64,000 nucleotides of DNA from Candidatus Omnitrophota bacterium (GTDB taxonomy: Bacteria; Omnitrophota; Gorgyraeia; Zapsychrales; JANLHA01), in NCBI GenBank assembly GCA_022711395.1, contig JAKLFA010000003.1:290509-354508 (forward strand), in the 5' to 3' direction. The notes beneath the pieces are model-generated. The model saw only the letters and a program-made list of their open reading frames with translations, had not been told where the DNA came from and ran no database searches. Positions 22,309 through 63,700 of this stretch are shown piece after piece. Each line of letters begins with the position of its first letter. Position 1 is the stretch's first letter. Position numbers and translations under genes: made by a program.

Positions 22309-22341
22309 GGCAGGGTTCGACTTCAGGGGGAAAGTCAAGTC

Positions 22342-23199
22342 ATGTTCGTTCTCGCGTTATTTTTCTTTTTTACAACCTGCGTGATCGTTGGGTATTGGAT
22401 CCTGCCGTCAGCGTATCGTCAAACAGTCGCTTTAAATCAAAAAAGGGCCCATCAGCTTTCTTCTAAACTGGAGAGGGTCATTCCCCGGGCCCAGATCCGT
22501 CAAGTGGTCCAGATGTATCTGCTCGCCCCGCTTCTTCTGGGCGGGCTTTTCTTTGTTTTCTTTCCGCAAAAAATGCAGGTTTACGGTGCCGTGGCGGGGG
22601 TCGTGCTCGGTTTTATTTTTCCGTCGATCTACACGCGATTTTTGATCGCGTCCAATAAAAAGAAATTTTCTGATCAGCTGATCGATGTGCTGATGATCAT
22701 GTCCAGCTCGTTCCGCGGGGGGTTAAGCTTGATGCAGTCGATGGAGGCGGTCACGGAGGAGATGAGCGACCCCGCCAATCAGGAGTTCTCCACTGTCCTG
22801 GGGGAAAATAAAATGGGCGTTTCGTTGGAAGAATCGCTGGAACATTTATACAATCGTCAACCGTCGTCGTCGTTGCAGCAGATGATCACGGCGATCCTTC
22901 TGGCCAGAGAGACCGGCGGTAACCTGCCGGCCATTTTTCAGCGTATCGTTGAGGTCATCCGCCAGCGGAAGCGGATCCAGGGGCAGATCGACACTCTGAC
23001 CCTTCAGGGAAAGATCCAGGGCGTGGTCATGGCGGCGTTGCCGATCGTCTTTTTCGGGTGGGTTTCAGGGATCAATCCGGACCATTTTAAGATCATGTAT
23101 GACACGCCGGTTGGAAGGAACCTGCTGGTCGCCTCGTTTCTGCTCGAAGTGGTCGGGGCGTATATGATATGGCAGATCAGTTCATTGAAGGATTTTTAA
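22342..23199 (+). CDS. tadB: Flp pilus assembly inner-membrane protein TadB (T2SSF domain)
   Basis: 285 aa. TM helices and a GspF-like domain (LIDVLMIMSSSFRGGLSLMQSMEAV...LQQMITAILLARETGGNL). Confidence 0.8.
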   Translation: MFVLALFFFFTTCVIVGYWILPSAYRQTVALNQKRAHQLSSKLERVIPRAQIRQVVQMYLLAPLLLGGLFFVFFPQKMQVYGAVAGVVLGFIFPSIYTRFLIASNKKKFSDQLIDVLMIMSSSFRGGLSLMQSMEAVTEEMSDPANQEFSTVLGENKMGVSLEESLEHLYNRQPSSSLQQMITAILLARETGGNLPAIFQRIVEVIRQRKRIQGQIDTLTLQGKIQGVVMAALPIVFFGWVSGINPDHFKIMYDTPVGRNLLVASFLLEVVGAYMIWQISSLKDF

Positions 23200-23217
23200 G
23201 AATCAAAAAGGAGCGGT

Positions 23218-24099
23218 ATGTTTTTTATCGCGGTCTTATTATGGTTTTTGTGCGCCTTTAGTTTTGTCCTGGGGCTGTTCCCCTTGGAAATGGAGGCCCG
23301 TCCGACATTGCAGGCCTTCGGTTATGAACTGCGTCCGACGAAGAAAAGAAAAAATCCTCTGGCGATCGTCCGGTCGGTTGCGATGTTCAACAGACCCTTC
23401 GTCGGTTCCGGGCAGTTGCGCGAAAAGATCCTGCGCGAACTTTCGATGGCGCATGTCAATTTAACGCCTGAGGAATTCTGGCTGTTCAAAGAGATCTCGA
23501 TCGTCGCGATGCTTATCTTTACGTATCCTTTGGTCGAGCCTGATTATATGGTCATCTGGCTTCTTTTGTGCGTGTTTTTTGGATACATGCTTCCGGAATA
23601 CTGGCTGCGCGGAAAGATCAAAAAGGTCAAGGGGATCATCATGAAAGAACTTCCCGACGCTGTTGATCTTTTGGGGCTGTGCGTCAACGCGGGGCTGGAT
23701 TTTATGCTGGCGCTGAAGTGGGTCGTTGAAAAGTCTCCGCCTTCGGTCATGGTCAGCGAGCTTAATATTTTGCTTCAGGAGATCAACGTTGGGAAGACCC
23801 GACGAGATGCTTTAAAGGCCCTTTCAGCCAAATATGATCTTGCGGACCTTGCGACCTTTACGCGGACCCTGATCCAGGCCGACAAGATGGGGACATCGGT
23901 CTCAGAAGCCTTGACCATCCTTTCAGAAGACATGCGTCTTGCCCGGTATCGACGGGGTGAGCAGCTTGCCATGAAGGCGCCTATGAAGCTTCTGGTGCCT
24001 CTTTTGTTCTTTATTTTCCCGGTTGTTGGTATCCTGGTCGGCGGACCGATCTTTATTCAGTTCATGACAGAAAACCCCATGAGCCGCATGACAGGATAG
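23218..24099 (+). CDS. tadC: Flp pilus assembly inner-membrane protein TadC (T2SSF domain)
   Basis: 293 aa. GspF-like domain (LPDAVDLLGLCVNAGLDFMLALKWV...TLIQADKMGTSVSEAL). Confidence 0.8.
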   Translation: MFFIAVLLWFLCAFSFVLGLFPLEMEARPTLQAFGYELRPTKKRKNPLAIVRSVAMFNRPFVGSGQLREKILRELSMAHVNLTPEEFWLFKEISIVAMLIFTYPLVEPDYMVIWLLLCVFFGYMLPEYWLRGKIKKVKGIIMKELPDAVDLLGLCVNAGLDFMLALKWVVEKSPPSVMVSELNILLQEINVGKTRRDALKALSAKYDLADLATFTRTLIQADKMGTSVSEALTILSEDMRLARYRRGEQLAMKAPMKLLVPLLFFIFPVVGILVGGPIFIQFMTENPMSRMTG

Positions 24100-24622: not shown

Positions 24623-24705
24623 TACAGAACCTTCCGGCTAGCAAACTAACGTACAATCTGGACATAAAAAAGACCCTTTTTATGGACGACAGACTGGACA
24701 TAAAT

Positions 24706-42700: not shown

Positions 42701-45700
42701 TGCGACAGCAGCTGTTTGGCCAGGCAGGAGATGTGACAGGTGCGACGATCTTCCGCCATGGCGATCTGGGCGCGGGCGGCCAGCAGCAATTATACGCCAT
42801 GCTCAGAGGCGGCACGGGCATGGTTGCGGCCCATGATGTGGAAATGGGAGACGAGATCATCATTGAATCCATGGCGCATCAGCCGGTTTCAGCGGACGCT
42901 TTTGGAGGGACACAGCCTCAGGCGCCTCCTTCAGCCACGCCAGCGGCCAGCGCGTCTTCTGCTTCACCGACTTTAAATACGACAACACCGTCTTCATCAC
43001 CAACACCGCTTGATCCTTCTGCACCGACACCGGGCACAAACGCATCCGTAACGCCTTCTACACCGACAACTCCTTCTGTTTCACCGGCTCCTGCCACAGC
43101 GCAGGCTCCGGCTCCGACTTCCGCAAGCGCGGCAGCAGAGGCCGTGGCTAAACTTGTAGAGCGCAAGCCTGGAGATATTGCCCGTGAAAAAACTTTGAGC
43201 AGCCTTTCCATGGGACGCGCTGTTCAGAGGGTCATGAAAAAGGCCAAAGATGGCAAAGTCGAATTGATAGGGTTTTTGAACGCCACGGCGCAGGCGGTTG
43301 AGATCGACGTTGGCTCCGGAGAAAAAGTTCAGCTGAAGAGCGGAGAATTTTTAAGAGCGAAAGACGCGGCGGTCTTTGGCTATGACGCTTCACGGCTGGC
43401 CGGCCAGACCGATAAAGCGCGCGTGAAGAGCTTCGGCTTTGATGAGGCTAAACCGGTCGCCTTGTTTGAGCAGGAAGTGGAGACTCCGGGTGTTACACAG
43501 ATCAATCCGATGACCGGTAAACAGGAAGTCGTCAGCCGGGATAAACTCCGCACAGTCCGCCGAGAGGTCATGACCGATGCCGCGACCGGCAAGAGATTTA
43601 TTGAACGCAAGATCGCTGATGTTGAAATGACGGTCGGTGTCGAGCAGGCGCCTTTAGCGAATGTTCCGCAGATCGAAGTCAGGTCCACGCAGGAAGTGAC
43701 CGTGGAAGGCGATAAGGTCGTTGTTTCTCCCCGGAAGATGACCAATACGATCCATATTGTGCAGCCTGCCGCCAGCGAAGAAGGAGTTGCTCCGGCAGCG
43801 ATCGATCCGCAGGTCCAGGCGTTAGATGGCGCGCGGGTCGAGGGCAACGTGGTGTATTCCGCTTCCAATAATACACCGGTCGCGCTGATCCATGACGGTT
43901 ACAGGTCCATGCAGTTCGTTGATGCCACGGACGCGGGTTACCGTATCAAGGGCGGCGATCTGTTCGCTGAAGCGGTGGTGCAGCGTTTAGGGCTGTCCCG
44001 GCATTTACCGTCTCAGGACGCCGAAGATGCCCCTGACATCATTATTCCAAAAGCTGAATTTGAGAACGCCCTTGGGCGCAACCGCGAGCTTTCTCAGGCT
44101 GACACACGGATTTTAGGAAACGTTGTTTATCGTAATGAAGCCGGAGAGATCCATACGGATTTTGTCGACCCGACAGGACGAAAATTTGTTGTTTTGAGAG
44201 GGAGCGATGGCGCTTCCTATATTATTGAGCGTGATGAAAGTGTCGGTGCGTATCGCGTGGCCGCCAACAATACGGAAGCCAGGATCCTTTTGCGCCGTTC
44301 CGGGATCAAGACCCGTTCAGAGGCGGGACAGGATATCCTGATCTCTGACGCGCAGATGGACCAGGCGCTGTTAGGTAACGGCAAGTTCCATATGGCGGCG
44401 GAGATCAACAGCCGTTTACGAAACAAACAATCTCAGGACCCGGCGGCTGATGCTCAGAAGCTGGCGCAGTTGACCACGGAATTGATCTCATATTATCATC
44501 CTAACGCGACCGTTACGCCAAGCGTGGAAAAGGGAACGTTAGTTCATACGTATAGCGTTCCTGATGGATCAGGCGGGCATAAGACATTCAGGTTCCTGCC
44601 GACGCTGGAAGCGGAAAAAGGAAAATCGTCCGAGCACTATCGCGAATCAGAGCGCGTGGACACAGGGTTCCAGGCGCTGGTGGCGGAGTTGACGCCGTTT
44701 AAGCCGACGGAAGGCGTTGGCGTTGTGGGCCATGAAGGCAGGCACGTTTTTGATTTCCGCATGAGAGTGCAAGGCGGCAGGCGATTGGGCGGCAGCGCGA
44801 TGATCACCGGAGCCGTGGCCCTTCCGATCCGCAAAGGCTTTGTCAGCAGCGGAAAACGCAATGATCTTTCCGATGTTCAGCACACAAACATTTATTTATC
44901 CTCAGTCCAGGGCGCGCAGAAAGCGACCGAGTTGGGCGAAGTCCGGGCCTACCGTTCACAGCTTTTAGCCCAGGTCGGCCAGTTCCTGGAGAGCGCCGAT
45001 ATTGAGGATCATGAGCTGGCCCAGGAGCAGGCTAAAGATATGCTGTATTTTATGAAGCTTGCCCGAAACATTTCTTATAAAGCGGAATTTGGTTATCGGC
45101 AGGCGTTGGGCATTATTCGAGGAGGCCAGTTAGGACAGGATTTTGCCATTACAGCAGACCCCTTGAACGCGCAGGGTTCCATTGTTGTTGTAACATACAA
45201 AGATGCCAGCGGCCAGGTCAGAAAGATCCAGCAGCCGATCGATCCCCGGGCAAGGGACCGGATCAGCGCGAAATATGCCGCTCAAGGCATTACAAAGACA
45301 GACGATGAGGTCACAAAAGAAGCGGTCATTGAGATCTTTGAGAGCACGGTCCAGGAAGAGCAGGCCCAATCGGCCCGTATCGAGCAGGCGATCGTATTGT
45401 TGGATCAGGTGGGAAGAGACGCCTCTCAGTTCAATCCGTTAGCGTTCCGGGTGGCCTTTAAGGGTTACAGCGCGACATCGAGAGGCGGGAACACGCGAGA
45501 GCATTTAGCCCGCGTTTTTGACCAGGCGGTCGATAGAGAAAGAAATTTTGCCGGGATCGGCAATGAAGGGATTGCTTCAGATATTCAGGCCCGCCGTGTG
45601 TTGGCGGAGATCACGTCGGATTCTGTTCGCGTTGACGGAGGAAGCTCGGAGTTCACGAGATTGACAGGAAGAGCGGCGGATTCGAATATGATCTTGGAAT

Positions 45701-48700
45701 ACAACGCGCAGACCGGCCGAGGCGTGATCTACGAAAAAGAAGGGCAGAAGGTCATTGCTGACGCTCCGGTCTTAGGGAAAGACGCCAGCGGAAAAACGAT
45801 CGTGGTCGAGCGGAAAGATCAGGTCAAGAAAACGGGCGGTAAGATTTTTGCTTTTGTTTCCGTCGGCTCCAGCGGCTCGCCGAAACAGATCCAGGACGTT
45901 CGCGCCAAGATCGATTTTGACAGCACGGCCAAGATCGAGGTCGTGAAGGCCCAGCAGCCGGCAACACCGGCCGCACCGGCAGGAACCAGCCCGGCGATCC
46001 TGGTGAGCGCTCCGGCTGCTTCCGCGTCGACCCCGGTTCCGGCTGTGTTGACAGCGCAGGCGGCCCTGTCACAGAACACAGAATCTTATAGCGCTGATAT
46101 GGCGAGAGCCACGCCTGTTGAATTTGCAAAATATACATTGGGCCGTCAGGCCAGCAAAGGCAGCACAACAGCGCAGAAAATTTTGGCGGGCGAGATCCCG
46201 CTTCAATTAAGCGGAACAAGCGCGATCGTTCCGGCTGGATCAGATGCGGCAGAGACTCAGCCGACACCGCGCGCGGCGATCAATGCCGCATTCAGAGACA
46301 GCAAGCCGGTGAACGCCGAACTTTTGGCCGCCTATAACGCAAAGTCTGAGCGTCCGATCAGCGTTCCTCAAAATTATGTCCAGCAGGGTGAATTTTTGGT
46401 TCCGTCCTCTGGCGCCGTTTCTTCATCGACCAGCGCGGCAGTCCTTTCAACACCGGCGACTGAGGCCGCACTTCCGGCATTGGCCACGCCGCCGGATGTC
46501 GGCACGGCCGCACCGGTCGGCACATTGCCTGTTGCGCCTGTTCTGACGCCGGTGGCCGTTACAGGGATGCCGTTGGCGGCGGACCTTGACGCGATGAAGA
46601 CAGCGGATAAATTAGCGCGCGCGCATATTGACAATATTATTGCCGACAAACCGGGCTCGGTTGAGCCGGCCGGCACATCTGCAGTCGATAGACAACCACA
46701 ACCACGCGTGTCCCAGGGTTCGAGATATTCCTCCGGGCAAGGGGAAGTAACCGGGGCACGCACTGTCGATCAAGCGAAGGTCCTGGACGCGGCGATGAGC
46801 GCGGTCAAGCCTGATTCCAATCAGGTGATCGCGACCCGACGCGCGGATGGGACGATCGTTTCCATTATAAATCCGAACACGAAAACAGTTGAGATCGCCG
46901 GCGTTGCCTTGCAGCCCGGCCAGGAAGCGGTCATGGCCCAGGAACCGCAGACGCAAGAATACAAGGCCATCAAGGTAGAACGAAGGCAGAGCGAAGGACA
47001 GACACAGACGGTCGTGAGCGAACCGGTCACGATCGGGGCCATTCAATTAGAGCGCGGCGATATCGTTGAATACGCCAAGACCGGGGAGGTCCGGATCCTG
47101 GACAAGGCCAAGCCTCAGATGGTGAAGGCGGAAGTCGCAGGCCAGGTCCGCAGTGATATTGAACCGGACGCGGTCAAGCAGGTTGAGGTTCAGAAGACCT
47201 TCGGTGATCTGAAAGTGGTCAAGGCTGATGTTGCGGTCGCGACGGGAGAATCTAAAACTTTGTATGTGCAGCCGACTGAAACCGTTCAAAAAGTTTTCCC
47301 GGACCGTAAAGCGGACGAAAGCGGAAATGTCCGTTTGAGCGAGCAGGAAATAAAAACAGTCTTCAGCCTGGAAAATACAGGTGTCACTAATATAGAGAAG
47401 ACCCGCCGTGATCTGAATCAGGCGGTTGTGGCGAAAGCGGAAGGACGCGGAGAGGTTAAGACGCTTACCGCAGCGCCGAAAGTTTATCAGCAGGCTGTTG
47501 AGGCGGCCCGTCAGGACCTGCAGGGCCAGTTGATGATCGCTCAGGCTAAGGCCCAGGACAGTAAAGGGGAGGACGAGAGGGCCCGGTTTGAAACGCAGGC
47601 CCGCCAGATCCAGAGCGAACTGGATCTTTTACGTGACGAGAATGTGGTTGTCCTCGATACTCCGCAGACACAAGTCCAGACATACAGAACAGAAGCTCAA
47701 GCTGAACAATTAAAACCTGAACAGGCTGTTGCCGTTGAGCGCGTCTTGAATGAGCGCGTGGAAGGCGGTTTTGTTGATAACACAGGCCGCGTCGTTGTAT
47801 TTGCTGATACAGCGGAACGCAATTTCGATTATGCTGTCAAAACAGAGCAGGCGAATTTGATTCAGGACAGCGTGAAGGCGCGCGTGGCCGAAACAGTTAA
47901 ACATGAAGTCGCGGCCGCGGCGAATCAATACAGCACGGATGCGGCCAATATCGAAGCCGCACGGACACGCATCGCGGATTTAGGTCTTCCGACGCAGGCA
48001 AGCTTGACCGGACGTGAGGGGGACAAGACGGAGGTCATGGATGCCTCCAGCGTAACGGCGATGTTAAGCGGCCAGAAACATGAAGTTCGTCCGTTTGACC
48101 GTCGACGGGAGGTCGCGCCGCGGAATTGGGAGGTCGTCTTCCCCGAAACAGTTTTTAAGGCCCAAAACATCAGCTTCCAGGAAGAAAAACTGATAAGCGC
48201 TTCCCGCGCCCGTGAAAGTTTCGTTCATGGATTTTTATTAAATCAGCCCCAGCTGGAAGTTGAGAGCGCGATCAGCAGAGTTCTTAAGAAACCGGTCAAT
48301 CTTGACGATGTTAGCGATAGGATCACGTTAAGTTATTTTGATGAAGGAACGAATAAAGACGTCTTTAAGGTCACCATGACCGCTCAAAACGGAGAGCAAT
48401 TTACATTTAAGCTCGCGCATAAGCAGCCGAAAAAGGGTGGCGATATCTCGCCGAGAGAAACGGTCAATCTTTCTGCCGTTTCAGATGTTTCCGGAGCGGT
48501 TCCCGGTTTTGGCGGGCGCTATGAATACAATGGCCGGGCATTTTATATTGAGGAATTCATTGAAGGAAAGACCGTTCGCCAGATCAACCAGCAGGGCGGT
48601 CTTACTCACGCGATCCGTGAAAAGTCGGTCAAAACGATCCTGGAAGTTTCTAAAACGCTCCATGATCTGGGAGAGGCCGAAGATATGCCGAAGGATATCC

Positions 48701-51700
48701 ATACCGGCAACGTCATGATCCGGGATCGGGACGGCTCCGCTGTAATGGTGGATATCGGTAATAATTATGTTCCGGTTGGACAGGGGGTCCAGAACCTGGT
48801 CCGGTTCTACGGTTATTTCGGTGAGAACAAGGACAAGGGAAGCAATGAATTCATTTATCAGGCCCTTTTGGATGCCTATGGCCGGGAAGATGGTTTGAGA
48901 TATTTGCAGAGCAATGTTGATCACATCAAGGCGGCCATGGCCTATGATCAAAAGACCGGCCGTGAAGCGGGCGTAACGTCACCCAAGAAAAAGCAGATCA
49001 GAGAGCAAAGGGATGAGCCGGCTCTCAGGACGGAAGATTCTCTGCAGGTCGTTCAGGAAATGGAAGATTTTATCAGACGCGTGTCCAGCAGCCCGTCATC
49101 GGATCTCGTAAGGGGCACGAACGCCGCGGTCATTGCTCCGGCCGTCACATATAAAGTTTCGCCGCCGCAGATGGATAGGCCTGTTCTGGAAAAGACCTTT
49201 GTCAGCCCGCAATTCGTCCATGACCTGAAGGTCCTGGGAGTCCGTGATGAAAATATTTCAAAGGTCGAGATCGGGCAAGGCGTAGGCGGACGGGAAAAGA
49301 CATTTTATCCGGTCACAGCGGGAGATCAAAAGGTCGCCGTTGTCGTGATCGGCGGTGGTCAGGAGAATGTGGACCGCAGTTATGAATTCCAGAAATTGGT
49401 CAGTCAAAAATTGCTTGGTGTGACGCAGACTCCCGTGAGCCTTCAGAAATATCCGGGCGGCGTCGGGGTGAAGGTTGAAGAGTTGATTCCCGGGCCCAGC
49501 CTTGAAATTATTTCCCGCAGGCTTTATGAGCGCGCCGCAAAGCCGGAAGTGGATGAGGCGACACGCGGAAAGATGATCGCCACGGCGCAAGCCCTGACGC
49601 GAAAGAGCGTGATGCGCTATGTCAGGCTTTGGGACCAGTTCGGCATGACGGTCGACACAGATCCAAGTAATGTGAAGTTCAAGGCATCAAGCGAGAAGAG
49701 ATTCGGGATGCCGGTGATCGTTGATCTGGACGCTCCGCAGGAATTTGATCCCAGCATGCCGGAAGAATTCACGAGATCTTCAAAAACAGCGTCGGAACTT
49801 ATCGAATCTATAGGCGATCCCTTCGGTAACGGCACAGTGAGCTATGACGCCGTCATGGATGAATATGTGGCAAAAGCCGTCAGACAGGGCAAAACGGTCG
49901 AGGCAGGAAAGCAGGAAGGCGTCCGGGTATTAAGAGAAGCGCTGGCGGAGTTCAAAGCGAAGGCCGCTCCTACCGTTGGAATGAATTTCACGCAGATCTA
50001 CACGGACCAGCTGACATCATATATTGATGGAGATGGCCTCAAGAATTATGAATATGTCGATCATCGCATTGAGAGGATGAATTTACCGGTCATGTCCGAG
50101 ACGGAAGCGGTCAGGACCGCCGCCCGTGATCAGCTGGAGATGATCAAGACCAGACAGACGCTTGCCAGCGCCGGCACGAATTCCGCGGTTCTTTCCGAAG
50201 CACCACGGTCTGCGTTAGCCGCTGCGGTGGATCTTAAGACCGTTCTGCCGGTGAACGCGGAGACCCGCCGGCCGGAACTGAAGGTCGTTTCTTCAGATAA
50301 GAATTATGTGATCGTTGCTTCTGAGCCCAAAGAATCGGTCGTTCCGGGCAGGATGCAGAGCCATTTCAATGTTTATGCGACGGACGCTCAGGGCAAAGTC
50401 GAGATGTCCAATGGTGAGCCGCGCGTGATCGGTGATTTTAAACTTTCTTCTTCGATGCAGAACGGCCGTCCAGTCGTTGAGATCAATGAGGTGGCGATCC
50501 CCAGAGCGCAGGACAGAGGCCAGGGGATCTACGGCGCGTTTGTTGACCAGCTCAAGACAACAGTCCCTGCTGGCGCTGAGATCAAGATCACGGATGTCCG
50601 TCATGCCCAGACGTTGGCGGATTTTGCCGGCGCGGTTTCCACAGAACTTAAAGCCCGCGGAGACGTGGCCGGTTTGAAGGCTGTTAAATTCATGGCCCTC
50701 CGTTCAGAGCTGCAGCAGATCAATGATGACTTTGAACAGGGCAAGATAAGTCTTTTGGAATACACCATGGCGGTTGAAGCCCCGCGGAAAGCGCTCGTTC
50801 CGCTTTTGCATCAGTATGATCAGATCAGCGAATTGGATCAAAGCCTTCCGTCGCTGACTGTCATGGCCAGGAAGACAGATTTCGGCAAACGCCATCAGGG
50901 TCTTTTTGATGTGGAGACGGTTTCCTTCACGATGCCACGCAATGATGGAGATATTCTTCTTCATATTTCGGGCGCGGCGAAGGGAACGGCTTCTCTCGCT
51001 CAAACCGGTACTAACGCTGCGGTGCTTTCTTCGGGATTAGGCAGGACACTCGCCAAGGCCGTTCTTCCGGTTTCCCTCCTTTTTGCGGGAGCTTCGTTCG
51101 ATACGGCGGAAGCGGTGACAGATAGAACAGCGGCCGCTTATGCCGGAAATAACGCGAGATTCGGCGTCGGTTCTTCTGAGATCGTCAAGGCCAGGGCTGA
51201 AATGGACCGTGGGCTTGATGAGATCTTGAATATTGTTCAGAAACGCAATGGCGGAAACCTTATTCCCGGTGGAGTGAACGCTCCGGTCTTATCTGAGATC
51301 TTATCGAAGGCCGTTAAGCCGGGAGAGGCTCCGCGGTTCGAGACGGTTTCTTCCGCGATCAGAAATGAATTGACCTCCCGTTATCAGAAGTTCGATTCCG
51401 GAAAGATGTCTCCTGCGGAGGTCGCCGAACTCGAGCAGCTCGAACAGGATGTGGCTGTCTTTACAACGCGCCTTGTGACCGAAAGCTCTCAATATGACGC
51501 GACGGGCAGGGGCGAGGAATATATGGCCTTGCGTAACATTGTTTATGGATGGCCAACTGTTGATGGAAATATAGCGCGCCGATATGTCTGTGAAGGTTGC
51601 GCGGCAATGAACACGCTGATCGGAGAGAATGAGTTCGGGCTGAGAGAATTCCGCAAACTGAATGTCCAGATGGATGCCAAAGGAATAGTCTTCGGCATTG

Positions 51701-54700
51701 ATGGGGAGGCCGGCCACTCTAATAATTATTTGCGCACGGCCAGCGGAAAGACGGTCCTGCCTGTTGATCAGGGCGTGTTCGGAAAAGATGCGGATCATCT
51801 AAAAGTAGATGTTTGGAATGACCAGGGCGAACACCGTGTCGTTCAGATCTCAGATCTTTCCAAGCCCGAACTTAAAGGGTTCCGTGGCGAAAGCGCCAAT
51901 GAAATTAAAGCCAGGGACGAGGCTGAATTACGGTTAAAGACGTTGACCGATCAGAACAATCTTTCAGCGCGGCTTTCGAACGGACGATCGATGGAGCAGT
52001 TGAGCCAGGTCCGTAGAGAAGTCCAGATGATCGAATCTTCTCCCGAGCTTATGAAGGCTATTGCCCGCCATCCTCATCTTCAGAAAAATTTTGACGGATT
52101 AAAGAAGGGCGTGACGGGCAATATTAAGATTACGACTTACAATGAGGCTGTGGAGCAGTTCAATGGATTGAGCCGTCAGCTCAACGGAGTCGGAACGCTT
52201 TTTGAAAATAAGGATTATAAAGCAGCGGCAGGCCAATATGAAAAGACTGCCACGGATATCAAGAAGGCCATTGAAACGCTCAAAGCGAACGGATTTGAGC
52301 AGTTACAACAGGCGTCTTCTGACGGCCAGATCGTTCGTGGAGGATCGCTGATCTCCGGCCTTGAAAAAATGCTCAAGGTCGCGGAGGACAACGCCGCCGC
52401 GGCCCGCCACAATGCCGGAATCGGGACTGGCCTCACATCAAGAACGCCGTCATCCGTCGTTGCGACCGGCAGCCGCACGGAAGCGCTAAAGGTCAACGGG
52501 CTTATTTCACGGTTCAATGAGGCCAGCCAAGCCAAGAATATTTCTGAGCTCAAGCAGCTCTTGTCCGAGGTTGAAACGCTTTCTGGCACAGTGAACGACA
52601 AAGCAATGTCAGAGGCGCTGGGTGACATTAAGACAAAGGCCGGTCAGAACATTACCGTTCTTCAGTTCAATGACCTTGCGGCGCGTTTTAATGTTTACGC
52701 TAATCAAAGAGGCCAGGGGGCTGTCAAAGAATTAGAGAAGATCCAGGCCGACGCAGAAGAGGCTTTAAAGACCGCTCCGCAAACAAGCCCCGTAAGGACC
52801 AAGCTGGACGATATGATCCGTCAGACACGCCAGATCATTGAAAGAAGGAGATCCGGCGCTTCTGTTGATCCGCAGCAAGCCTCTCCGTTGAAGGAAGCGG
52901 AAGGGCAATTGGCTTCTGTGAACACCGTGACGCCTTTGATCGAGGCGACTGCGGAACTTTCGCCTTTGCCCTATGAAACGGTCACAACATACAGCGTCGA
53001 CCACGGGGTTGTGGTCGCGCGGGGAACGCCATGGATGGACACGCTGGCAGGACAGGCATCAGATGCTGATCGTGCCGGCCGCAATTATGAGAACGGCTCT
53101 GCCCAGGCATTGGGCCGCCCGGCGCCTCAAACCAACGCCGCGGTCCTCGCCCAGGAAACCATAAAGATCAATTACCGTTATCCCAAGTCAATATCGGCAG
53201 GCTTGGGCAGGGCTTCGAATTTTGAAGGAAAAGCGGAGATCTCTCGCAAAGCGCATCAGGCCAACAGCGGCAAGGGGGATTTCAGGCAAGTTCATGTTAT
53301 TGCTTCCGATGACGCGGATCCCGCGGCCCAGGCCGAGAAGATGGTTTATGAAAGACAGGCGCGGAAGGATCAAACGCCGGTTTATATTTTTGATGCTCAA
53401 GACTCTCAGTCTCCGCTGAAGGCAGTGGAGATCACGGATAAGGGACAGATCAGCTACCGCAAAGTTCAGCCAAGTGAGATCGAGACGGGTACGGTTGTTG
53501 TCGCCAATCCTCGCTTGAATACCGCCGCGGCTTTCAGCCCGGCTTCCGAGACGGCGCGCAACTTGGTCAAAAAAGGGAACGTTATCGTTGATCCGGACGT
53601 CTTTTCAGTGGAACATCTGGATGGCCAGGCAGCGCCGGAAACTTCTGTGATCGGACTATCGGCAGCTCAGACCACTAAAGTCCATGCGGCAAGCATTCCT
53701 GCGGTTCAGGCCAAGGCCATGAAAAGCGTGCGGATTGTTCTTGGCGTTCAGGACGGGGTCGTTCTGTCTCGCGAAGCTTTTGTTGATCCGCGCATCAGGC
53801 AATATTCTCCCAAAGAACAGCAGAACTTGAATGACGCGATCTTTGTTTTTGCTCAGCAAGGAACGTTTGATTACGTGCAGATCGATGATACGGATCCGAG
53901 CAGTATGCGGACAGAGATCATCCGCACGGCGGACGGCATGAACATTTTAGTGATCGGCGCAGGATATTCTAGAACAGAGATGCGCACGTTGGTCGAAAAT
54001 ATTGGTGATGAAGCAGCTCAAGATAGCGGCTGGGCGGCGTTGGCTGTCAAGACGGCGTCGAACTGGTTGACAAAGATCAGACCATCTGTGGTCTTAAGTG
54101 ACAAGACCGCGGGAGATATTATGGTTGGCCGTAAGAATTTGACTCCTGGTCAGGCTCCGATCATCTCGGCTCAAGCGTCCGCGGCGCTCGTCGGGCCCAA
54201 GAGCGGAAAGATCCCGAGCTGGAGCGAGGCTGTGTCGAGCTTAGCAGCGGAGCAGAAAGCCGGTGTTCAGGGAATCAATGTGGCGTCGGGATTAAAGGCT
54301 TCAACCTCTTCAACACAGGTTAATAATGCCGTTCTTTCATCCGGAAATAGCGGCAACGAAGACGGCATGGATGCTGATCAGTGGGTCGCTTTGATGCAGG
54401 CGCAGTCAGGGATATCGGATACCGAGATCGGGGACGTGTCTGTTGTGGAAGGATTTATTCCCAGCATGCATGATGGCGAAGGTTCTCTGGAAGAAAATTC
54501 CCGAGAAGGCGAATATTACCGGATGACCAGAACAGGCGCTGGATTTAAGGTTTCAGAGATCAGACCGGCGAATGATTTTAAGGCAGTGGATGAGGCCAGC
54601 GATATTGTTTTGTTCGTCCGCAAGGACCGGCCGGAGGTCATCGCGAAATATCATTTAAGGACCGCGTCGGGAAAAGAAAAGCCTGAAGCAGAGATCTCAA

Positions 54701-57700
54701 GGGCGGTCAAGACCGTGTTCGAAAGTGAGCAGTGGAAGAACCGCCAGCCTCAAAGCGTCAGGCAGGCGCCCGCTTCTGAGAACAGAGGGGCCAATGCTGC
54801 TGTCGTGAAGGAGCCTTCAGATATTTTCTTGGGTGGAGTTCCGACGAGAGGGGAAACTGTTCTGGGATTGATCGGCACGGTCTCTTCTGAAACCCAGCCT
54901 GTCGCAGGAGCGGAGGACAGCGCTCCCGTTCAGAAACATGTGATCAATTTCTTCTCTTCCAACGAAGGAAAAGATAGTTCGGCAGGCGCCGCACGGAACT
55001 ATCCTTTGGAAACTCCGATCACAGACACGCTGCAGAGCGAGATCCGGGACCTTGAACATGAATTTGATCAGGCGCAGGTTTCCGCTCAACCAGCCGAAGT
55101 TCAGGAAACGGCTTATCGTAAGCTTGTGGCCGCCAAGGCACTGCTTTTACGTGAATATGAAACGCGCCTGTTGAACCAGGTCGCAAAGGCGCGTAATGAT
55201 GATGCTCTGCAGAATGCCACAAATCCGCTTGAGCATGATATTCGTATTAATGGAAAGACAGTCCTAACACTTAAAAATTCAGAAGGGATTCTCAGAGGCG
55301 GCAGTTGGTATGACCAGCTGGCAAAACAGGCCCAGGATCCCGAGGTTTTGGATGTCTTGGATGTGGCTAAGAATTTGGATCGGCAGGCGGATCATTTATC
55401 GCATTTTGACGGGCAAGGAATGTCAGTATCAGCTATTAGAGGAGAGATCTCTTCTCTGGCCGGACAATTGAATTGGCTGAAAGTCAGGCTTTCTGCATCC
55501 GATCGTTCAGACAGGGCTGTTGCTCGCGCTCAGCGTAGTGTGCGCCAGCAGACACCGCGAACAACAACTCAGGCCGTTTCGGCATTACAGCGGCCGTCCA
55601 AGGTCGGTTCGGTGATCGTTGGAATCGCGACCAGCACCAAGAACCCGATGGATACGGAAGCATGGCGTCCGTTCTTGGAAGGAAAGATCAAGGCCGGAGA
55701 CCAGGCCGCGATCGCTGAATATGTGGCGCTCTTCCTGTCGGGCGACGCGAACTGGGTTGAGTTTAGAAGGCTTTTGGAGGCGGGAGCGATCGAAACCGGC
55801 GAAATTTGGGCCCCGGTCTTAGAACTGGTCTACGCGAAAGAAGCGGAGCTGGCCGCTCAAGGAGCTGTTAATGAAACAGAAGATGCGAATGCCGCTGTTC
55901 TTGGAGGATCATTCTGGGTTCGCGGAGCGCAGTCGCTGTTAGTGGCCGGAATGCTCGCTCAGGGCATTTCAGGATTTAATGCCGGAGCGGCAGAGGCTAT
56001 TGCTGATTCAGTGAAGCAGGAGATGGCCGCGGACGCCCGCTTAAGAGACGAATTGCATCGAGCGATGGCTGAATTTGACAGGATCGAGAAAAAATACACG
56101 CTTAAGCGCGAATTCAAGCCTGGCTTGCACATGATCGGAGATTTTGATGACATCCGTCCGACGGTGATCTTGATCCATGGCGGGTTCTCCAGGCCGGACG
56201 CTTTTGAGCGCTTCGCGCCGTATTTCAGAGAGAAATTCAATATCGTTATCTTTGCGCATGATTCCGCGGAGCGCTTGACTCGCACAGGCGAGCTTTTCAG
56301 GGCGGATTATGAACGGTTGTTGAAGGGGACATCTTCCAAGAAGATCGTTGTGACCCATTCATTCGGCAGCACGGCGTTCATGAGGGCGATGCTTGACGCG
56401 AGTCCGGAATTTAAGGCGGAACTCAAGACCGCCAAGGTCTTTATGCTGTCACCGGCGTTCTTCGGTTCGGCGCGCGTTGGCATGGGCGGCAGCTGGTTCG
56501 TCCAGGGCCAACTGTGGCTGGGATCATTGGGCGGCGCGTTCGATTTTCTTGAAGCAACTCGACGACAAGGACAATATCATGATCCAGATGGCAAAACGAC
56601 CGCGGAATTATATAAGCGGTACCAGGAATTTAAAGCCCTGTTCAATGATGAGGTTGAAGTTATTGCTTTGACCAATGATTCTCATGCGCCGAAACGGCAA
56701 GAGAGTGTTTTAGGGCAGCGTTATCAGCAGATCGTTGTTGAGGGCGGCGCGCTTTTGCCGGCTGAAACGGATGTCGGGCATTCTGAGATCTTGCGCCGCA
56801 GAGATGTTGTTGAAACGATCATTAATAAAGTTTCAGGAGGCGCTTCAACGGAGACAAACCCGGCCGTGCTTTCACGTGATTTTGAATGGCCGGCCCTTCC
56901 GCAGAATGAAAGCCAGTTGCGCTCACAACTTAAGGAATCTTTTGCTAGAAGCTGGAATCCTGTCAGAGGAACGCCTAGAGATGCGTTAAGGATCTATCGT
57001 GTGAACGGACGATTCTTTGTGAAGGCGCCTTTGGCCGCGCATTTGATCTTAGGAAAAGAGCTGGCATTGAACGCCTTTGGTCGCCATTTTATACCGACGA
57101 CGGCGTTGGTCGCCTCTGTTGATTCCTTAAAGTATGGAGTGGTGGATCAATACGCGGCGAACGATCCGGGAGCGCCCGTGGTTTATGTTCAACCGGTCGT
57201 TCAGCCGTTCGTGGATGTTGTGCAGGATGAATTTGGGTTCCAGCACGCGGTCGCCGGCCAGGGTATTTTGAATGCTGAACCTGCCCAATCGATTGCGCGC
57301 ATTGATTTTTATTTCGAGATCCTGGAAGACATGCTTAAAGTCGGATTGTCGAACGCGGACGCGACTATTGCCCAGGTTGGCGTTGCTGAAAACAATAGAA
57401 CGTATTTCTTTGATATTGAGCGGTTCCGCGAGGTTAAACCGCAACTGGGTGATGCGCAGGATGTGCAGGTCAACACGTTGTTGGCCATTGATGCACGGAA
57501 TAGAGAATTGTTGGCGGAAGCGGGTGTTGGTAAAGAGATTTTGAGCCACTATGACCTCAGGTCAAAGGCATTCTTCAAGCAAGACACGCTTGATAAGCTG
57601 TGGCAAGCTGAGATGAACTTACGCCAGCCGGTAAGCAGCTTGTTTGATTATGCGAAAGATGTGGCATCACGGTTCACGCCGTCATTAACAAAAGAAGAGT

Positions 57701-60700
57701 TTAAGCAAAACGTGGCCTTGCCTGAATTAGGGGAAGCAGTAAACGCATCCGCCATGCGCGGAAAAGCTGCGCCTGTGGCAGGGGATTCAGCGTTGACGAA
57801 TTCAGCCGTTCTGCCGGGAGCAGATGACAGTGCGCTGCCGGAGCTTCCTCAACCGGATATTAATCCAGCGGTCCTTCCGGATACGTCAACACCGTTGCCG
57901 ATCCAGCTTAATCCCGGCATGTTGCCGGTCTATATATTAGGGAAGGCGGATACAAATGTTCCTGATCCGATAGGACAAGGTTCTGAACGAGATTCTAAAC
58001 AGTCTCCGGTTGTTCCTGTCAGTGGAAGTCAATTACCGCTTCCTCTTATACCGGCTGATGGCGGAACTCCTGGACCCGGCACAGGCACAGGATCAAAGGC
58101 AAATTCTACCGCATTTGTGGTGTTAGCCCGTTCAATCTTGCCTGCGTCTAAGCAAGAAGTGCGAGCAGCGCCTAATAATTTGGATCAAACTCAAGGAGAT
58201 TTTGAGATCACAGATATCCGAATGGCCAGTCGCAAGAACTGGACTGGTACGGGCTTGAGTCCAACGGCATGGGTCTCTGCCGACCACTCCACAGTGGTTC
58301 AGGCAGAGGGAGCAGTAGAGTGGATAGGACTTGGAGTAGGAACAGTTGTAGAAGGTGTGGTATTTGACAATGTGGCTAACTTGTTGAGCAACACAGGCTT
58401 GAGTAGAGTGGCGCTTAACGAGGGAGAAGCAGATGCGTGGTCTGTGCGCCTTGGCGCGAACTTCACGCAAGAAGTAGCAGGATCAGTTGTAGAGGTAGAA
58501 GCAGCAGTAGAAGGTGTGACTGATGGATCGAACTCGGCTGTCTTAGGTGGCGTAACGACTGATAAGGGAGAAACAGAAGCACGGTCTGTGCGCTACGGCG
58601 CAGAAAACGTGCAACGTACTGGAATAGTAATAAGCAGCAGAAGTAGCCGTAGAGGTAATCGTTCTTTGAAGGGTCATGATACTGAAGCGCGCGGCATTCT
58701 GGTTGCCGCTATTCAGCCTTGGGCTCTGCTTGAGGCCGGAGAAGGCATTCTGGATGTGGTAAGCGGCTTAGGTACCAAGATCCTGGCTAGTGTAGTTGCA
58801 GTAGGAAGTAAACCTGTTGTAACGGGTGTCAAACAGGGTTCTCAGAGTGCGGGTTCTAGAGATAGAACTGAGCATTCGAGTCCGCTGGCGATGCCTGAGG
58901 TTCTTGGGGTGCGTATTGACAGCTCATATAGTGTCAGCCGTAGATCCAGGAATCAAAATGCCGGACGTTCGAACAGCAAAGCCTTTGGCCGCGCTGTGAA
59001 TCGTTTGGCCAGAACCATTAGAGGTATTATTGGAACAGTTGTAAGAAGTAGACGTAATCGCTCTGTGGAACACAACAGTCGTGGGTCGGATAGTTCTGCT
59101 GAAGGTGAATCCGCTGATTCTGATGCGGATGCTGATGCAGAAGATTCACGAAGTGTAAGAACAATCAGTGGAAGTTATGATGTAGAAGGAAGTCGTTCTG
59201 TCATCAGTTCAGTAAGTGCGGATCAATCCGAAAGATTGGTCCAAAATGCAGTTCAGGGAGTGCGAGAACTGCAGAATGTAAGCGCCGGATCCAATGCGGC
59301 TGTAGTCGCGGAAGGTCAGGTGAATTCTGCTGATGCTGATGATCAAGGTGTGAGAAGTGTTGGAACTAAGGATGTAGAAGGAAATCGTTCTGTCATCAGT
59401 TCAGTAAGTGCGGATCAATCCGAAAGATTGGTCCAAAATGCAGTTCAGGGAGTGCGAGAACTGCAGAATATGACCGCAGGATCTGATCGTGCGGTTTCTG
59501 CTATTACTGATGATCATGGAGTTGAAGGTAATCGCTTGCTGAATGCAGGCGCTGTATATAGTGTAGGAACCTCACAGCTCGAAAGAGCTGATTCTGATAG
59601 TCCTGAGTTGCGCGAAGAAGAAAGAGCGGCTCAGGCTCAAGACGTTTCTACCACAAGTATTCCGGCTGCGACAACAACCGGAACAGGCTTCGATGGAAAT
59701 GCGAAGAGAAGCCAGTTCTGGGCATCTGTTCGTATGGCCGGGTTCAAGACAGAAGCACGCATCATCCTGACCAGGATGACAGGTGCTTTGAGTACGTTTA
59801 TCCTCGCAATACTCAAAGGCGCTCAATCCATCCGTGCGCCGAACTTCGTTAATTTAACAGCGTCTATTAACTTTATGAAGAGCCTGATCAAGGGCGGTCT
59901 TTCTATTGTCCGGACCGCGTATGATCAGGCTTCTTCATTTATCAAAGGAGGGTCATCATGGTACTCGTTAACACACAACCAGATGTCGAATTCAAGTATT
60001 TCCTTGAAGTCCCTAAGTCACGCTGCACGTTCTGCTCAGGGAGAGACAGAACAACCGGTAAGACCAAGCTTTACCTTGTCTTCCATGAACACCAACGCGT
60101 CTACACTCGCAACGGGCTCAGAGGAACCTGGGAAGAGCTCGAATCAGGAACAAGCAGACAGCTTAGAAACATCCTCAACGATGCCTACACAGACATCAGC
60201 ATCCCGCGCTACAGCTCGAACAAGTACCAGTCGCTTATCAATTAGAGATCATGTGTATTCAACCGGGCTATGGCTGCTGTTGGGGATTGTTCTTTCTGCC
60301 TATATGTCCGGGATGCATATTTTAGTCATTGTAGCGATCGCGTCTGTTTGGTTAGGAATCTCAGCCAGGATCTATCAAGGAACATCCTTAAGCCAGAACA
60401 AAGGCAAAGGGCTCTTAACTCGTATTGTTGAGAATACGGTTTTAAAGAACACCATTTTGTGGTTCATGATCTTCTTCTATGGATTTGCCGGAAACGCCAT
60501 GGGCGCTTCCATGAAAGCCGAAGATCGTGATGCTGGATACAAAGCTCCAAACGTGGTCAATGTGGAGAATTGGACCGGTCACCAGAGCGGCATGTCGTTG
60601 TCTGGCACCACATTATGGATGGGCGATCGCGCGAATGATCAAGGAATTTTAAGGTTAGCGCATGCGATGGCTCAACAGAACCGCGGGCCGGCCAAGGTTG

Positions 60701-63700
60701 TGGCGGCTGCTGACATGACCGGTGACGGCAATAACAATCCGCCAGCCCAGCCTGATGCAGAAGACACCAAACCGGCCAAGGCCCAAGATCCGGCTCCGGC
60801 TAAAGACACTAAGAAGCCGGTTGAGCCCAGCAAAGCTCCCGTGGCGCCGATTGCCACGATCGATGATGAGACGTTAGGAAAGGCCCTCACCAGCGGTATG
60901 CCGCTGCGCTCGGAAGAAATTTTTGCCAACTTCGAGCATCCGTATAATGTCCGGCTTTTCGCCGCGGCTTTAGCCCAGGCTGAAAGCAAAATGCAACATC
61001 AGATGGCCACCGATGACGGCAGCGGCTTGTTCGGCATGAGCGAAGAAGAGTGGTCTCAGGCCGTTCAATATATGCTCAACCATAAGTTGTTGGAACAGCC
61101 GTTGTCTTACGCGCATGTCTTAGACCCGAACGTGGCCGCTGAGGTCGCGATGGCTAAGTTGAACTATCAGTTCGAGCTTCTGAAGAGCAACCATATGGCT
61201 GACGGCAAGTCTCAGGAAGAGGTCCAGAGACTGGCCCTGGCTGCTTACAGGATGGGCATGGATGAAGTTGTCAAAGCCGGTAAAGTCCCAGCCGCGGCCA
61301 AGGCCTTTGTTGACCAGGTGATGGCTGATTATAAGCGTTCTGATGAGATGACACGCAAAGCCTACAACCTGGAAGTTGTTTACAACCTGCCTAAGACCAT
61401 GTCCGCCGCGCCGGTCTTTACGCCGTATACCAATGGCTTGGGCATTGTTGATGCTCTGGAAGGAAAACATGAAGAACATAAAGTCGGTCCGAAAACAGAA
61501 GTGTTGGAAGCCGTAAAGCAGAGCGCTGAAGATGCGGTGACCAGGTCTGTTCCGCAGAACGCGAAAGCGGAAGAAGACAGAACTGATGCAGCTCTTGCGC
61601 AAGAGAAGAAGTCTTCTGAAGATCCGCTTCTGCCGGCCCTTCCAGAAGGAGACGTTTCGCTCGACCCGACCAGCATGGTCCTGCCGCCCAAAGACGCGTT
61701 AGGGACAGAGTTGCCCACGCTTTCGATCGGGGAACCTGTTGAGGGGACAGGGATGTTCCGTCGCGTGCAGGTCAGCATTAAAGCGAAGGGCCTGGAAGAT
61801 GTTCAGGCTACAAAATATGGATATCAATCAGACGAGCATATTGACAGCAATTCTTTGAACGGGATCGGTCATAGCAATAACCGTCTGGTCAAAGATGTGA
61901 GCGTGGCCCTTATGGCGGAAACAGCCAATGCCTTGGGAGTGTCTTCAGGTGATTTGATTGTTATCCGTTTGAAGAATGGGCAAACGCTCCTGGGAAGATA
62001 TGATGACACCATTCCGTCATTGTATAAAGGGCACAGGGTTGACTTCTATACGCCATCGGGAGAGTTGTCTTTTGATGGGCAGAAGGTCGAGTTGTTTAGC
62101 TATAAACAGATCATGAGCGGCCTTTCTGCTGAAGATCAGACAACGATCAAGGCGGAAGCCGGCCTGCTTGCTTCGAAGACGAATGACACACAAGAAGCGG
62201 CCGTGGCCGGCCAGAGCAAGATATTGAGGAACATGAGCACGCAGGTCGAGCTGACGGCCGATCTGAGGGTCGAAACGATCGACGGCAAAAAGACCCTGGT
62301 CCTTGACCGCAGCTATTATGAATTGGGCGAGAACGAGTTGGCGAAAGTGTATCTGCCGCTGATGGAGAAATTGGGCGTTGACCGCATCGTGATCAAGGGC
62401 AAACAGCCGGTCGCTTATTTCATGGAAGACGGCAAACTGAACACCAAGCGCTTTATGCAGACAGCGGCTCACGGCCAGACCTACCGCGAAAGCGGATATT
62501 ACGGCACGGCGGTCGATACCAAGAGCTGGATCGTGACGGTTCAGGTTCCGTTCGCCTCGCCGGTCCGCACGCCGGTTGCCGGTAACGTGGCCGCGGTCGC
62601 CTTGACAGCGGACGGCTGGAAAGTCACGGTCCAGGCCGAGAACAAGATTGAGACGATCTTCACGCACCTGGGCGAAACAGCGGTCAAGGCGGGCGAAACA
62701 TTGGCAGCGGGCGATCTGATCGGTCTGGCGGGCGAATTCAAGAGCAAGGATGCGAAAGAATATCATTTCCGTATCCAGGTCAAAGAAGACGGCAAGGAGG
62801 TCAACCTTTTGAAGAAAAATGACGGCGCCTCAACGATCGAAGGCGTTCGTCAGGCCTTTGTGAAGAATTTCAACCTCGATCAGGCGGAAGTCGATTTCTA
62901 TACCGGCAAGCTCGAAACGCATGAAGAGCGTAAGACAGAAGCGGACAGCGCCATCGCCGATAACAATGCCCATGTTGAAAAAGGCAAGCTCGAGATCGAG
63001 AAGCAAAAAATCGCTGTTGAGCAGGCCAACGATCCGGAACAGATCCGCCGCAGAGAACAGAGCGCGATCGGCTTCTACTTGTTCGGCAAGCGCGATTGGG
63101 ATGTGGCGAATCCTTATGGCAACGCGAACGCCAGCCGCAGCATGACCGACGCCTTATACGGCACGCCGGCCAATGAGGGCGGTTTCTGGTTCGGGGTCGG
63201 GTTCAATTCGATCTATTCAACGGGCGTCGGCGGTCCGGTCCTCACCCTGGGCGACAACAGCTTCTCACTCGATATTTCCGGCGGCGTGAACAATCAATTC
63301 TTAGGCACATGGGGACAGCTGGCTGGCGATGTGTTTGGGGCTGAAGATGTTCTTTCTAAGGGTCCGGCTGCTACAGCGTTGTTTGGCATTTCATTAACCG
63401 ATAATCTTATTAAGTTGCGCAATACATATGAGGATATTTCACACCGCGCCAATCAGTATGGCTATACTGAATTTTTTGATCAGGGCTGGATCTTCAACAA
63501 ACCTTGGAAGTTGGCGCTGGATACATCCAGGGTTGTTCCCAATCCGCGCCCGATCAACGGTGAATGGGTCAGCGATCCGTATCATCACGCGGACTTTACG
63601 CCCGCGCGCATATTAGAGTATCCCGGCAAGCTGGTCAAAGGCCTGCTGACACTGGATGCCTTTACATCTGATTTCTGGAGCAATAATCCGCTTTATAAGC

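Follow-up and report, generated by a model that had tools for sequence, protein, structure and literature searches.

A divergent SLT-like domain paired with a degenerate LytM domain in a giant Omnitrophota protein

Results

A giant reading frame with three envelope-related modules

This report concerns a giant open reading frame (ORF) in a Candidatus Omnitrophota bacterium, and in particular a pair of domains near the end of its known part, a divergent SLT-like domain and a degenerate LytM domain. The ORF lies on a stretch of 64,000 nucleotides of contig JAKLFA010000003.1 (assembly GCA_022711395.1, positions 290,509 to 354,508), which is referred to as the window in the following. According to a frame scan, the plus-strand frame from 24586 to 63999 is uninterrupted, comprises 13,138 codons with a first ATG at 24682, and is still open at the end of the window. 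An original prediction for this DNA had placed three modules in the downstream part, an alpha/beta-hydrolase, an SLT lytic transglycosylase and an M23-like module, and all three do lie inside this same giant frame. The coordinates of these and other features are collected in Table 1.

The SLT-like domain

The motifs that had been predicted for the SLT module (AQAES, G-L-x-G-M and an AYNAG-like motif) are present exactly as described. The closest known enzymes are the family-1 lytic transglycosylases and GH23 (Slt70, MltC, MltD, MltE, goose-type lysozyme). The domain lies below the detection limit of the Pfam SLT model PF01464, and the segment has no match in NCBIfam or, by phmmer and hmmsearch, in the PDB, even at E ≤10. 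By the refutation criterion of the original prediction, a lack of profile matches to the SLT family, the result with Pfam SLT would count against the assignment, which is rescued only by profile-profile comparison. With the three-member family alignment A1 as query, hhalign aligned the domain to the three SLT repeats of a protein designated P0004 with a probability of 96% (P 4.3e-9, score 59.1), and to an alignment of Escherichia coli Slt70, MltE, MltC and MltD with P 5.5e-5 (score 35.9). The maxima of 150 column shuffles were 17.8 and 22.0 for the two comparisons, and the reversed sequences scored 11.8 and 16.9, respectively. P0004 is a true triple-SLT protein (Pfam SLT, 85.8 bits), and a phmmer search over 1.84 billion protein representatives connected it to our query as well, with a match of residues 86-163 at E 3.1e-5. 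The HMMER scan of these representatives returned four proteins in all, P0001 to P0004. One of them, P0003, was discarded as a low-complexity artefact, a repetitive protein of 2,510 amino acids with a match confined to residues 8-40.

In both alignments, the glutamate of AQAES falls on the catalytic glutamate of active enzymes, namely on QES of P0004 and on ARQES of Slt70 (E505 of the precursor). Active enzymes and the domain likewise share the G-L, D-P and A-Y-x-x-G positions, with GLFGM placed on GLMQI and AAYRMG on AAYNAG. Compared to the family-1 enzymes, the differences are the replacement of GLMQ by GLFGM, so that the glutamine is not conserved, the replacement of AYNAG by AAYRMG, and an insertion of about 12 residues ahead of D-P; moreover, the nearest relatives of the domain lack the glutamate. 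An AlphaFold2 (AF2) model of the domain has a mean predicted local distance difference test (pLDDT) score of 56.6, with values below 50 around the glutamate, and the top matches in a fold search with this model were GH23 enzymes only. The comparisons point to a genuine, very divergent SLT/GH23-like domain that keeps the glutamate in the catalytic position.

The M23/LytM domain

The third module is readily recognized by Pfam Peptidase_M23 (PF01551), with 38.8 bits in the long context and 41.5 bits when excised (gathering threshold 28.7; E 1.6e-10). PDB matches by phmmer comprise M23 peptidases and ShyA at E of about 1e-3, and also SpoIIQ, which is the best, partial match in NCBIfam as well (4e-7). 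Individual residues were called from alignments with ShyA, with E. coli MG1655 MepM (active), NlpD and EnvC (both degenerate), and with P0001 and P0002. Neither of the two possible registers (S..T or T..P) preserves the HxxxD motif, alanine stands in place of the histidine of the central strand, and HxH reads E-Y-H (62758-62766), while the histidine of T-H-L is kept. Thus two of the three zinc ligands and one of the two catalytic histidines are missing, and the original prediction of an M23-like module with lost zinc ligands was correct. The two remaining histidines are not conserved in P0001 or P0002.

Loss of zinc ligands from an M23 fold is shared with NlpD, EnvC, DipM and Bacillus SpoIIQ. 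In the alignment with MepM, NlpD and EnvC, the pattern of the module, with HxxxD lost and x-x-H remaining from HxH, comes closest to that of NlpD. Judged by these residues, the module is a degenerate LytM domain. As its metal site is lost, a role as a binding or regulatory pseudo-enzyme is supported.

Rare relatives of the SLT-LytM pair

Only two close relatives were found among the 1.84 billion representatives, P0001 (758 amino acids; locus L085, 2951-5227) and P0002 (734 amino acids; locus L100, 3658-5862). Both have a signal-peptide-like N-terminus, followed by an unrelated N-terminal region, the SLT-like block, the pre-LytM block and a degenerate LytM domain. The SLT-like blocks are 55% (P0001) and 38% (P0002) identical to that of the giant protein. 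An insertion of about 250 residues between the SLT and LytM domains of the giant protein is absent from both (alignment A4). Their genes have housekeeping neighbors, ferritin and RuvC in the case of P0001, ETF-QO and an aminotransferase in the case of P0002. The catalytic-position glutamate is replaced by serine in P0001 and by tyrosine in P0002, so that Glu-Ser is kept by the giant protein alone.

Other searches added little. A protein homologue search with a 684-residue SLT-M23 query gave one match, and a search with the three-row SLT alignment returned nothing, not even P0001. Scans of genome and metagenome contigs with the SLT-M23 protein or alignment yielded no confirmed loci.

By these comparisons, the SLT-LytM pair is an evolutionary unit, and its co-occurrence in P0001 and P0002 points to an origin in periplasmic wall remodeling. 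The data suggest that the two proteins belong to a family of non-catalytic periplasmic factors that was either the source or the recipient of the cassette in the giant protein.

The losses raise the question whether the SLT-like and LytM-like domains could both be pseudo-enzymes that bind peptidoglycan and fasten this part of the protein to the sacculus, much like a SpoIIQ-type LytM domain. Such a non-catalytic anchor would fit with a family that tolerates the loss of the glutamate, with an SLT-like domain too divergent for Pfam SLT and devoid of the canonical glutamine of GLMQ, and with the lost metal site of the LytM domain, whose best partial NCBIfam match is SpoIIQ. However, Glu-Ser, G-L, D-P and A-Y-x-x-G are all kept, column for column with active enzymes, and the retention of the glutamate in the giant protein only suggests selection for catalysis there. 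We therefore consider a pure anchor unlikely.

Membrane cluster, linker and insert

In a Kyte-Doolittle scan, strongly hydrophobic segments are few across the ORF: one at the N-terminus, a group between residues 384 and 476, and a cluster that spans residues 11893-11974, directly upstream of the SLT-LytM part. The flank that precedes this cluster and the loop within it are rich in lysine and arginine, and the residues past the last helix are neutral to acidic. Because of this charge distribution, the positive-inside rule, admittedly a crude method, would place the SLT-LytM part outside the cytoplasmic membrane. The cassette starts about 115 residues past a transmembrane (TM) helix, and a linker of 38 residues rich in proline, alanine and lysine leads up to the SLT-like domain. 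The predicted tethering of the protein to the membrane or cell surface is thus plausible.

The insertion between the SLT and LytM domains contains a candidate double-psi beta-barrel pattern that resembles RlpA and 3D domains. Its sole trace in the searches was a weak match to Molydop_binding, a family with this fold (E 0.22), and the RlpA/3D reading did not reach significance in Pfam, in phmmer searches of the PDB or in hhalign comparisons with E. coli RlpA and MltA.

Upstream of the cluster, a direct repeat doubles a peptide block (…EGNRSVISSVSADQSERLVQNAVQGVRELQN…) within the low-complexity spacer, rich in serine, arginine and aspartate, that extends from the hydrolase to the membrane cluster. 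Tandem Repeats Finder reported no tandem repeats between 55 and 64 kb.

The alpha/beta-hydrolase-like domain

The Pfam model Abhydrolase_6 matched the hydrolase segment with 26.8 bits when excised (gathering threshold 26.3; E 9.6e-6), but with only 22.2 bits within a query of 3,506 residues. An hhalign comparison with E. coli BioH, MenH and YbfF gave P 2.4e-4 and a score of 34.0, whereas the best of 100 shuffles scored 22.8. In this alignment, VILIHGG falls on LVLLHGW of BioH with the oxyanion H-G, and VTHSFGS on LGWSLGG, the nucleophile elbow with Ser82. An alpha/beta-hydrolase fold with a serine nucleophile is therefore supported by the sequence comparisons.

The original prediction had seen a complete Ser-Asp-His arrangement with an HGG oxyanion hole. 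HGG and the serine elbow held up in the alignment with BioH, but the aspartate and histidine were assigned by pattern only. The favored pair fits the expected order of an aspartate after strand beta7, a histidine in the beta8 loop and a C-terminal helix, and resembles GERDS and AGH of MenH. A forced global alignment instead pairs DPDG and DSHAP with D207 and H235 of BioH. A Ser-Asp-His triad is thus plausible. The order of secondary structure elements in a single-sequence AF2 model is compatible with the fold, but the model had a pLDDT of 43 and was unusable, and its Foldseek matches (kinases and ATPases, with TM-scores of at most 0.27) are meaningless.

No NCBIfam match and no homologues in the protein homologue search were found for the hydrolase domain, and only the generic Abhydrolase_6 model matched, but no lipase or esterase subfamily. 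With neither a subfamily, nor homologues, nor a usable structure, the predicted attack on lipids finds no support. Nor does the idea that the three modules act together, as some 1,400 residues, among them the hydrophobic cluster, separate the hydrolase from the SLT-LytM part downstream. It may even reside in a different compartment from the SLT-LytM part. We treat it as a probable separate module with a serine nucleophile that is not demonstrably part of the SLT-LytM cassette.

Since neither the SLT-like nor the hydrolase domain is an easy match, one may ask whether both are chance resemblances of low information content in a very long and compositionally ordinary protein. The SLT segment is without sequence matches in Pfam, NCBIfam or the PDB, the hydrolase is below the Pfam threshold in its long context and without homologues, and the single-sequence model of the latter failed. 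Yet the hhalign scores of both domains clearly exceed the maxima of the corresponding shuffles (35.9 and 59.1 against 22.0 and 17.8 for SLT, 34.0 against 22.8 for the hydrolase), the phmmer match over 1.84e9 sequences is to a true SLT protein, and the SLT block, 38-55% identical in two other proteins, must be under selection. Chance resemblance is therefore highly improbable.

N-terminal region, composition and gene neighborhood

At its N-terminus, the giant protein has a signal-anchor-like TM segment and, just after it, a Peptidase_C39 domain, in agreement with the C39 architecture cluster that has been described among giant proteins of Omnitrophota. The protein contains only six cysteines in 13,138 residues (codons at 25213, 26005, 36022, 36043, 51589 and 51598), and one of the six is the active-site-like cysteine of the C39 domain (NCGVFAL). 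Cysteine depletion is typical of proteins that are exported unfolded, and it may bear on the location of the bulk of the giant protein.

Within the ORF, the G+C content rises from about 0.46 to about 0.56 at around 41800-42000 and stays high to the end of the window. There is no obvious change in amino acid composition across this step. The step suggests that the giant gene is a mosaic or arose by fusion. Two independent assemblies with identical GyrA (64,346 and 64,431 bp) both begin just upstream of gyrA. By offset arithmetic, they stop inside the giant ORF at places about 110 bp apart at most, at window positions of about 63450-63560. This suggests that a repeat or a strain-variable segment breaks short-read assemblies at this place.

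The window is a chromosomal piece that carries gyrA, mdh and genes for a CN-hydrolase and a PPIase. Its exact GyrA sequence occurs on a metagenome contig of 538 kb (JGI 3300010429, Ga0116241_10000028). GyrA shares 90% identity with a Candidatus Omnitrophota metagenome-assembled genome (MAG), and nearly all of the best 50 genome matches are Omnitrophota or PVC MAGs that carry the label "Planctomycetales", apparently in error. These genes are followed by a complete-looking Tad/Flp pilus assembly cassette (5763-24099), which is encoded on the same strand as the giant ORF and ends 583 nucleotides ahead of it. The secretin of this cassette is fused to a C-terminal TonB_C domain, an unusual combination. 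A mobile-element origin of the locus was considered and rejected: tblastn against phages yielded no more than generic M23 matches, which came from two Thermus phages and covered 12%, and plasmids gave no match at all. Polyvalent proteins, conjugative elements and jumbo phages were likewise dropped as origins, given the context of housekeeping and Tad genes and the Omnitrophota GyrA.

Table 1. Features of the giant ORF and of the neighboring Tad cassette (positions in the window)
Feature	Position	Strand	Basis or remarks
Giant ORF	24682..63999	+	>13,100 amino acids, no stop before window end
Divergent SLT-like domain (GH23, family-1 lytic transglycosylase-like)	~60958..61326	+	family-conserved block 60856-61434
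SLT motif AQAES	60973-60987		Glu codon 60982-60984
SLT motif GLFGM	61024-61038		
SLT motif D-P	61123-61128		
SLT motif AAYRMG	61240-61257		
Conserved pre-LytM block and degenerate LytM (M23) domain	62296..62805	+	Pfam match 62539-62805
Insert core, RlpA/3D-domain-like (double-psi beta-barrel) pattern	61807..62049	+	ATKYGY ... GDLIVIRLKNG ... RYDDTIP ... RVDFY; candidate only
Pro/Ala/Lys-rich linker	60742..60855	+	38 residues, from TM cluster to SLT-like domain
Hydrophobic transmembrane cluster	60262..60507	+	residues 11893-11930 (one long TM or hairpin) and 11956-11974; Kyte-Doolittle
Direct repeat, 123 nucleotides, two copies	59169-59291, 59361-59483	+	93% identical, 192-nucleotide spacing
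Alpha/beta-hydrolase-like domain	56164..56790	+	Abhydrolase_6, hhalign
Hydrolase oxyanion motif H-G-G	56176-56184		
Hydrolase elbow T-H-S-F-G	56359-56361		Ser codon
Hydrolase favored Asp (NDSH)	56677-56679		alternative in DPDG
Hydrolase favored His (VGHSE)	56779-56781		alternative in DSHAP
Signal-anchor-like TM, N-terminus	24838-24894	+	hydropathy and charge flanks; five K/R before, none after
Peptidase_C39 domain	~25345-25596	+	Pfam, 37.7 bits; just after the signal anchor
RcpC/CpaB	5763-6605	+	same strand as giant ORF
Secretin with C-terminal TonB_C domain	6637-8352	+	same strand as giant ORF
CpaE-CpaF fusion ATPase	8394-10556	+	same strand as giant ORF
DUF192, then several small and large unannotatable ORFs	between CpaE-CpaF and TadB		one of 1,474 amino acids
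TadB	22342-23199	+	same strand as giant ORF
TadC	23218-24099	+	same strand as giant ORF

Discussion

The best-supported reading of the locus is that of a membrane-tethered, glycan-strand-cleaving domain with a LytM domain that lacks catalysis attached to it in cis. We tentatively go one step further and suggest a cassette that resembles PrgK and that would act, most likely, on the wall of the producer itself, a reading to which we give somewhat less than even confidence. As we read it, the cassette would be self-contained and comprise the TM cluster, the linker, the SLT-like domain, a small beta-rich module as the insert, and the LytM domain. The last TM helix would place the cassette outside the cytoplasmic membrane. 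There, the SLT-like domain would cleave the bonds between N-acetylmuramic acid and N-acetylglucosamine (MurNAc-GlcNAc) in glycan strands, with the glutamate of AQAES as the general acid. The dead LytM domain would cut no peptides, but would bind peptidoglycan, or dock on the neighboring glycosidase and tune it, or both. The substrate would most likely be the sacculus of the producer. By opening it locally, or by anchoring to it, the cassette would enable installation of the giant protein and of the pilus machinery next to it through the wall. The domain identities, the kept and lost motifs, the gene context and the taxonomy are shown by the data, and topology, catalysis, the regulatory part of LytM and the target wall are inferred.

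Several lines of evidence make us favor the producer's own wall. The cassette would be tethered close to the membrane, P0001 and P0002 have the look of housekeeping proteins, and a Tad machine is encoded immediately upstream. Envelope-spanning machines are commonly accompanied by dedicated lytic transglycosylases. VirB1, EtgA and FlgJ-type proteins are specialized lytic transglycosylases of this kind, which locally open the wall of the producer. The locus would share with them a glycan-strand-cleaving domain that is encoded together with, or fused to, an envelope-spanning apparatus. However, these enzymes are either small proteins in their own right or are fused to a rod or cap protein, whereas the link to the Tad system is one of gene adjacency only. 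We know of no dedicated wall-opening lytic transglycosylase for Tad pili. A further argument for the producer's own wall is that the peptidoglycan synthesis pathway of Omnitrophota is complete (10.64898/2026.06.07.730766).

Among characterized proteins, the closest parallel is PrgK of the type IV secretion system encoded by the Enterococcus plasmid pCF10, which combines a TM anchor, a metal-free degenerate LytM domain, an SLT domain that alone is active, and a CHAP domain, with the LytM and CHAP domains down-regulating SLT activity (PMC11323569). The giant protein would share with PrgK the character of a membrane-anchored extracytoplasmic enzyme, the combination of SLT with a degenerate LytM domain, and the association with a trans-envelope machine, all of this as read from sequence alone. 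PrgK, however, is an ordinary-sized plasmid protein of a Gram-positive bacterium with the order LytM-SLT-CHAP, whereas we find SLT, an insert and LytM in a protein of more than 13,000 residues of a diderm host. Unlike in PrgK, no CHAP domain was found by Pfam in the giant protein, in either the long-context or the excised scans. As the neighboring system is a Tad pilus and not a type IV secretion system, and as there is no sequence relationship beyond the shared domain families, the resemblance is functional and architectural only.

A second parallel is provided by DipM of Caulobacter, whose degenerate LytM domain is a binding partner and stimulator of the lytic transglycosylases SdpA and SdpB and of the amidase AmiC (PMC10336132). 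The pairing of a LytM domain with a lytic transglycosylase is the one that we see in cis. Degenerate LytM factors act in trans, on amidases or transglycosylases that are separate proteins, and carry LysM or coiled-coil regions for targeting, whereas the LytM domain of the giant protein is covalently joined to its presumed partner.

The giant protein itself is not without precedent. Giant Omnitrophota proteins, the "Archaeovorins" and related proteins (10.1101/2023.11.21.568195; 10.64898/2026.06.07.730766), share with it the host phylum, an ORF that exceeds 13,000 residues, adjacent genes for type II or Tad secretion, and an SLT-type domain, which is noted there as less common. The N-terminal C39 domain next to a signal-like TM segment and the multiple hydrophobic segments are also shared (West-Roberts et al., 2023). 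In the 13,138 residues within the window, which represent an incomplete ORF, we found no SecA-DEAD, glycosyltransferase or dockerin domains or other domains typical of Archaeovorins. By term search, the main texts of the two reports (10.1101/2023.11.21.568195; 10.64898/2026.06.07.730766) contain neither M23/LytM domains nor an SLT-LytM pairing, and mention hydrolases only in general.

The literature on these proteins suggests a different target. According to this idea, the surface-exposed SLT-LytM cassette, and possibly the hydrolase, would attack bacterial prey after attachment by breaking down its peptidoglycan and ester-linked parts of its envelope. The published model cites SLT domains in some of the giant proteins (10.1101/2023.11.21.568195), and flanking secretion and pilus genes, which are present at our locus as well, have been read as predation machinery (10.64898/2026.06.07.730766). 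The presence of only six cysteines would fit with unfolded export, and the catalytic glutamate is kept in the giant protein and lost in its ordinary-sized relatives. However, starting about 115 residues past the TM segment, on an extended linker of 38 residues, the cassette would reach the wall of the producer, but not obviously across the outer membrane. Moreover, the LytM partner is catalytically dead, the nearest relatives are secreted proteins in a housekeeping context, and the only cultured relative of the bacterium preys on a methanogen that has no murein (10.1101/2023.11.21.568195). We regard a prey-directed weapon as possible, though on the unlikely side. The original prediction of peptidoglycan attack or remodeling is supported as far as the SLT domain with its catalytic glutamate and the paired metal-less LytM domain are concerned. 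The sequence cannot, however, separate attack from remodeling, or decide between the wall of the producer and that of prey.

Other points speak against an active cassette that works on the wall of the producer. The SLT segment (60799-61500) has no Pfam match, to PF01464 or any other model, even at E ≤10. The structural evidence for its fold is partly circular, since true SLT rows were part of the input alignment of the AF2 model, which is of low to moderate confidence. The SLT-like family can exist without the glutamate. The topology was derived from simple hydropathy and charge, and an even instead of an odd number of TM helices, or vice versa, would flip the sidedness. The giant protein was missing from the results of the protein searches, so that the databases may cover sequences of this size too thinly, and the rarity of the cassette may be overstated. 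The ORF runs past the window, so that additional domains further downstream are possible. Finally, the published hypothesis of prey cell wall degradation (10.1101/2023.11.21.568195) stands beside our own.

A bolder variant of the own-wall reading, which we consider rather improbable, would make the SLT-LytM pair the wall-breaching "gate" of a trans-envelope organelle made from a single polypeptide. Anchored in the inner membrane, the gate would open the producer's own sacculus, and an extracellular stalk without cysteines, more than 11,000 residues long, encoded by the same gene and with the Tad system co-encoded, would be threaded out through the opening. The dead LytM domain would serve as a safety switch that acts in cis on the glycosidase. 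If this were true, no module dedicated to opening peptidoglycan would have been described before in Tad-type machinery or in giant proteins of bacteria, and the gate would be built on an orphan SLT-LytM family of which three members were seen among 1.84 billion representatives.

The locus does not represent a new kind of system. Giant Omnitrophota proteins with C39 domains, many TM segments, type II or Tad neighbors, occasional SLT domains and a proposed role in cell wall degradation were already known, and the general picture of wall-active domains in such proteins is unchanged by our results. What is new is that a giant protein of Omnitrophota contains a cassette of PrgK-like architecture. 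This cassette belongs to an orphan family of SLT-LytM domains that is rare, is missed by current profile libraries, and is documented here.

The function of the giant Omnitrophota proteins is an open question, and nearly all of their sequence is unannotatable. In this situation, three small modules of about 120-210 residues each, which can be excised, offer starting points for direct tests of catalysis in a giant protein that is otherwise opaque. The predictions are a glutamate-dependent cleavage of glycan strands by the SLT-like domain, a metal-free LytM domain that binds or tunes this glycosidase, and an esterase with a serine nucleophile. Knowledge of the wall that the SLT-like domain targets, and of the side of the membrane on which it resides, would separate a model of prey wall degradation from one of assembly or anchoring.

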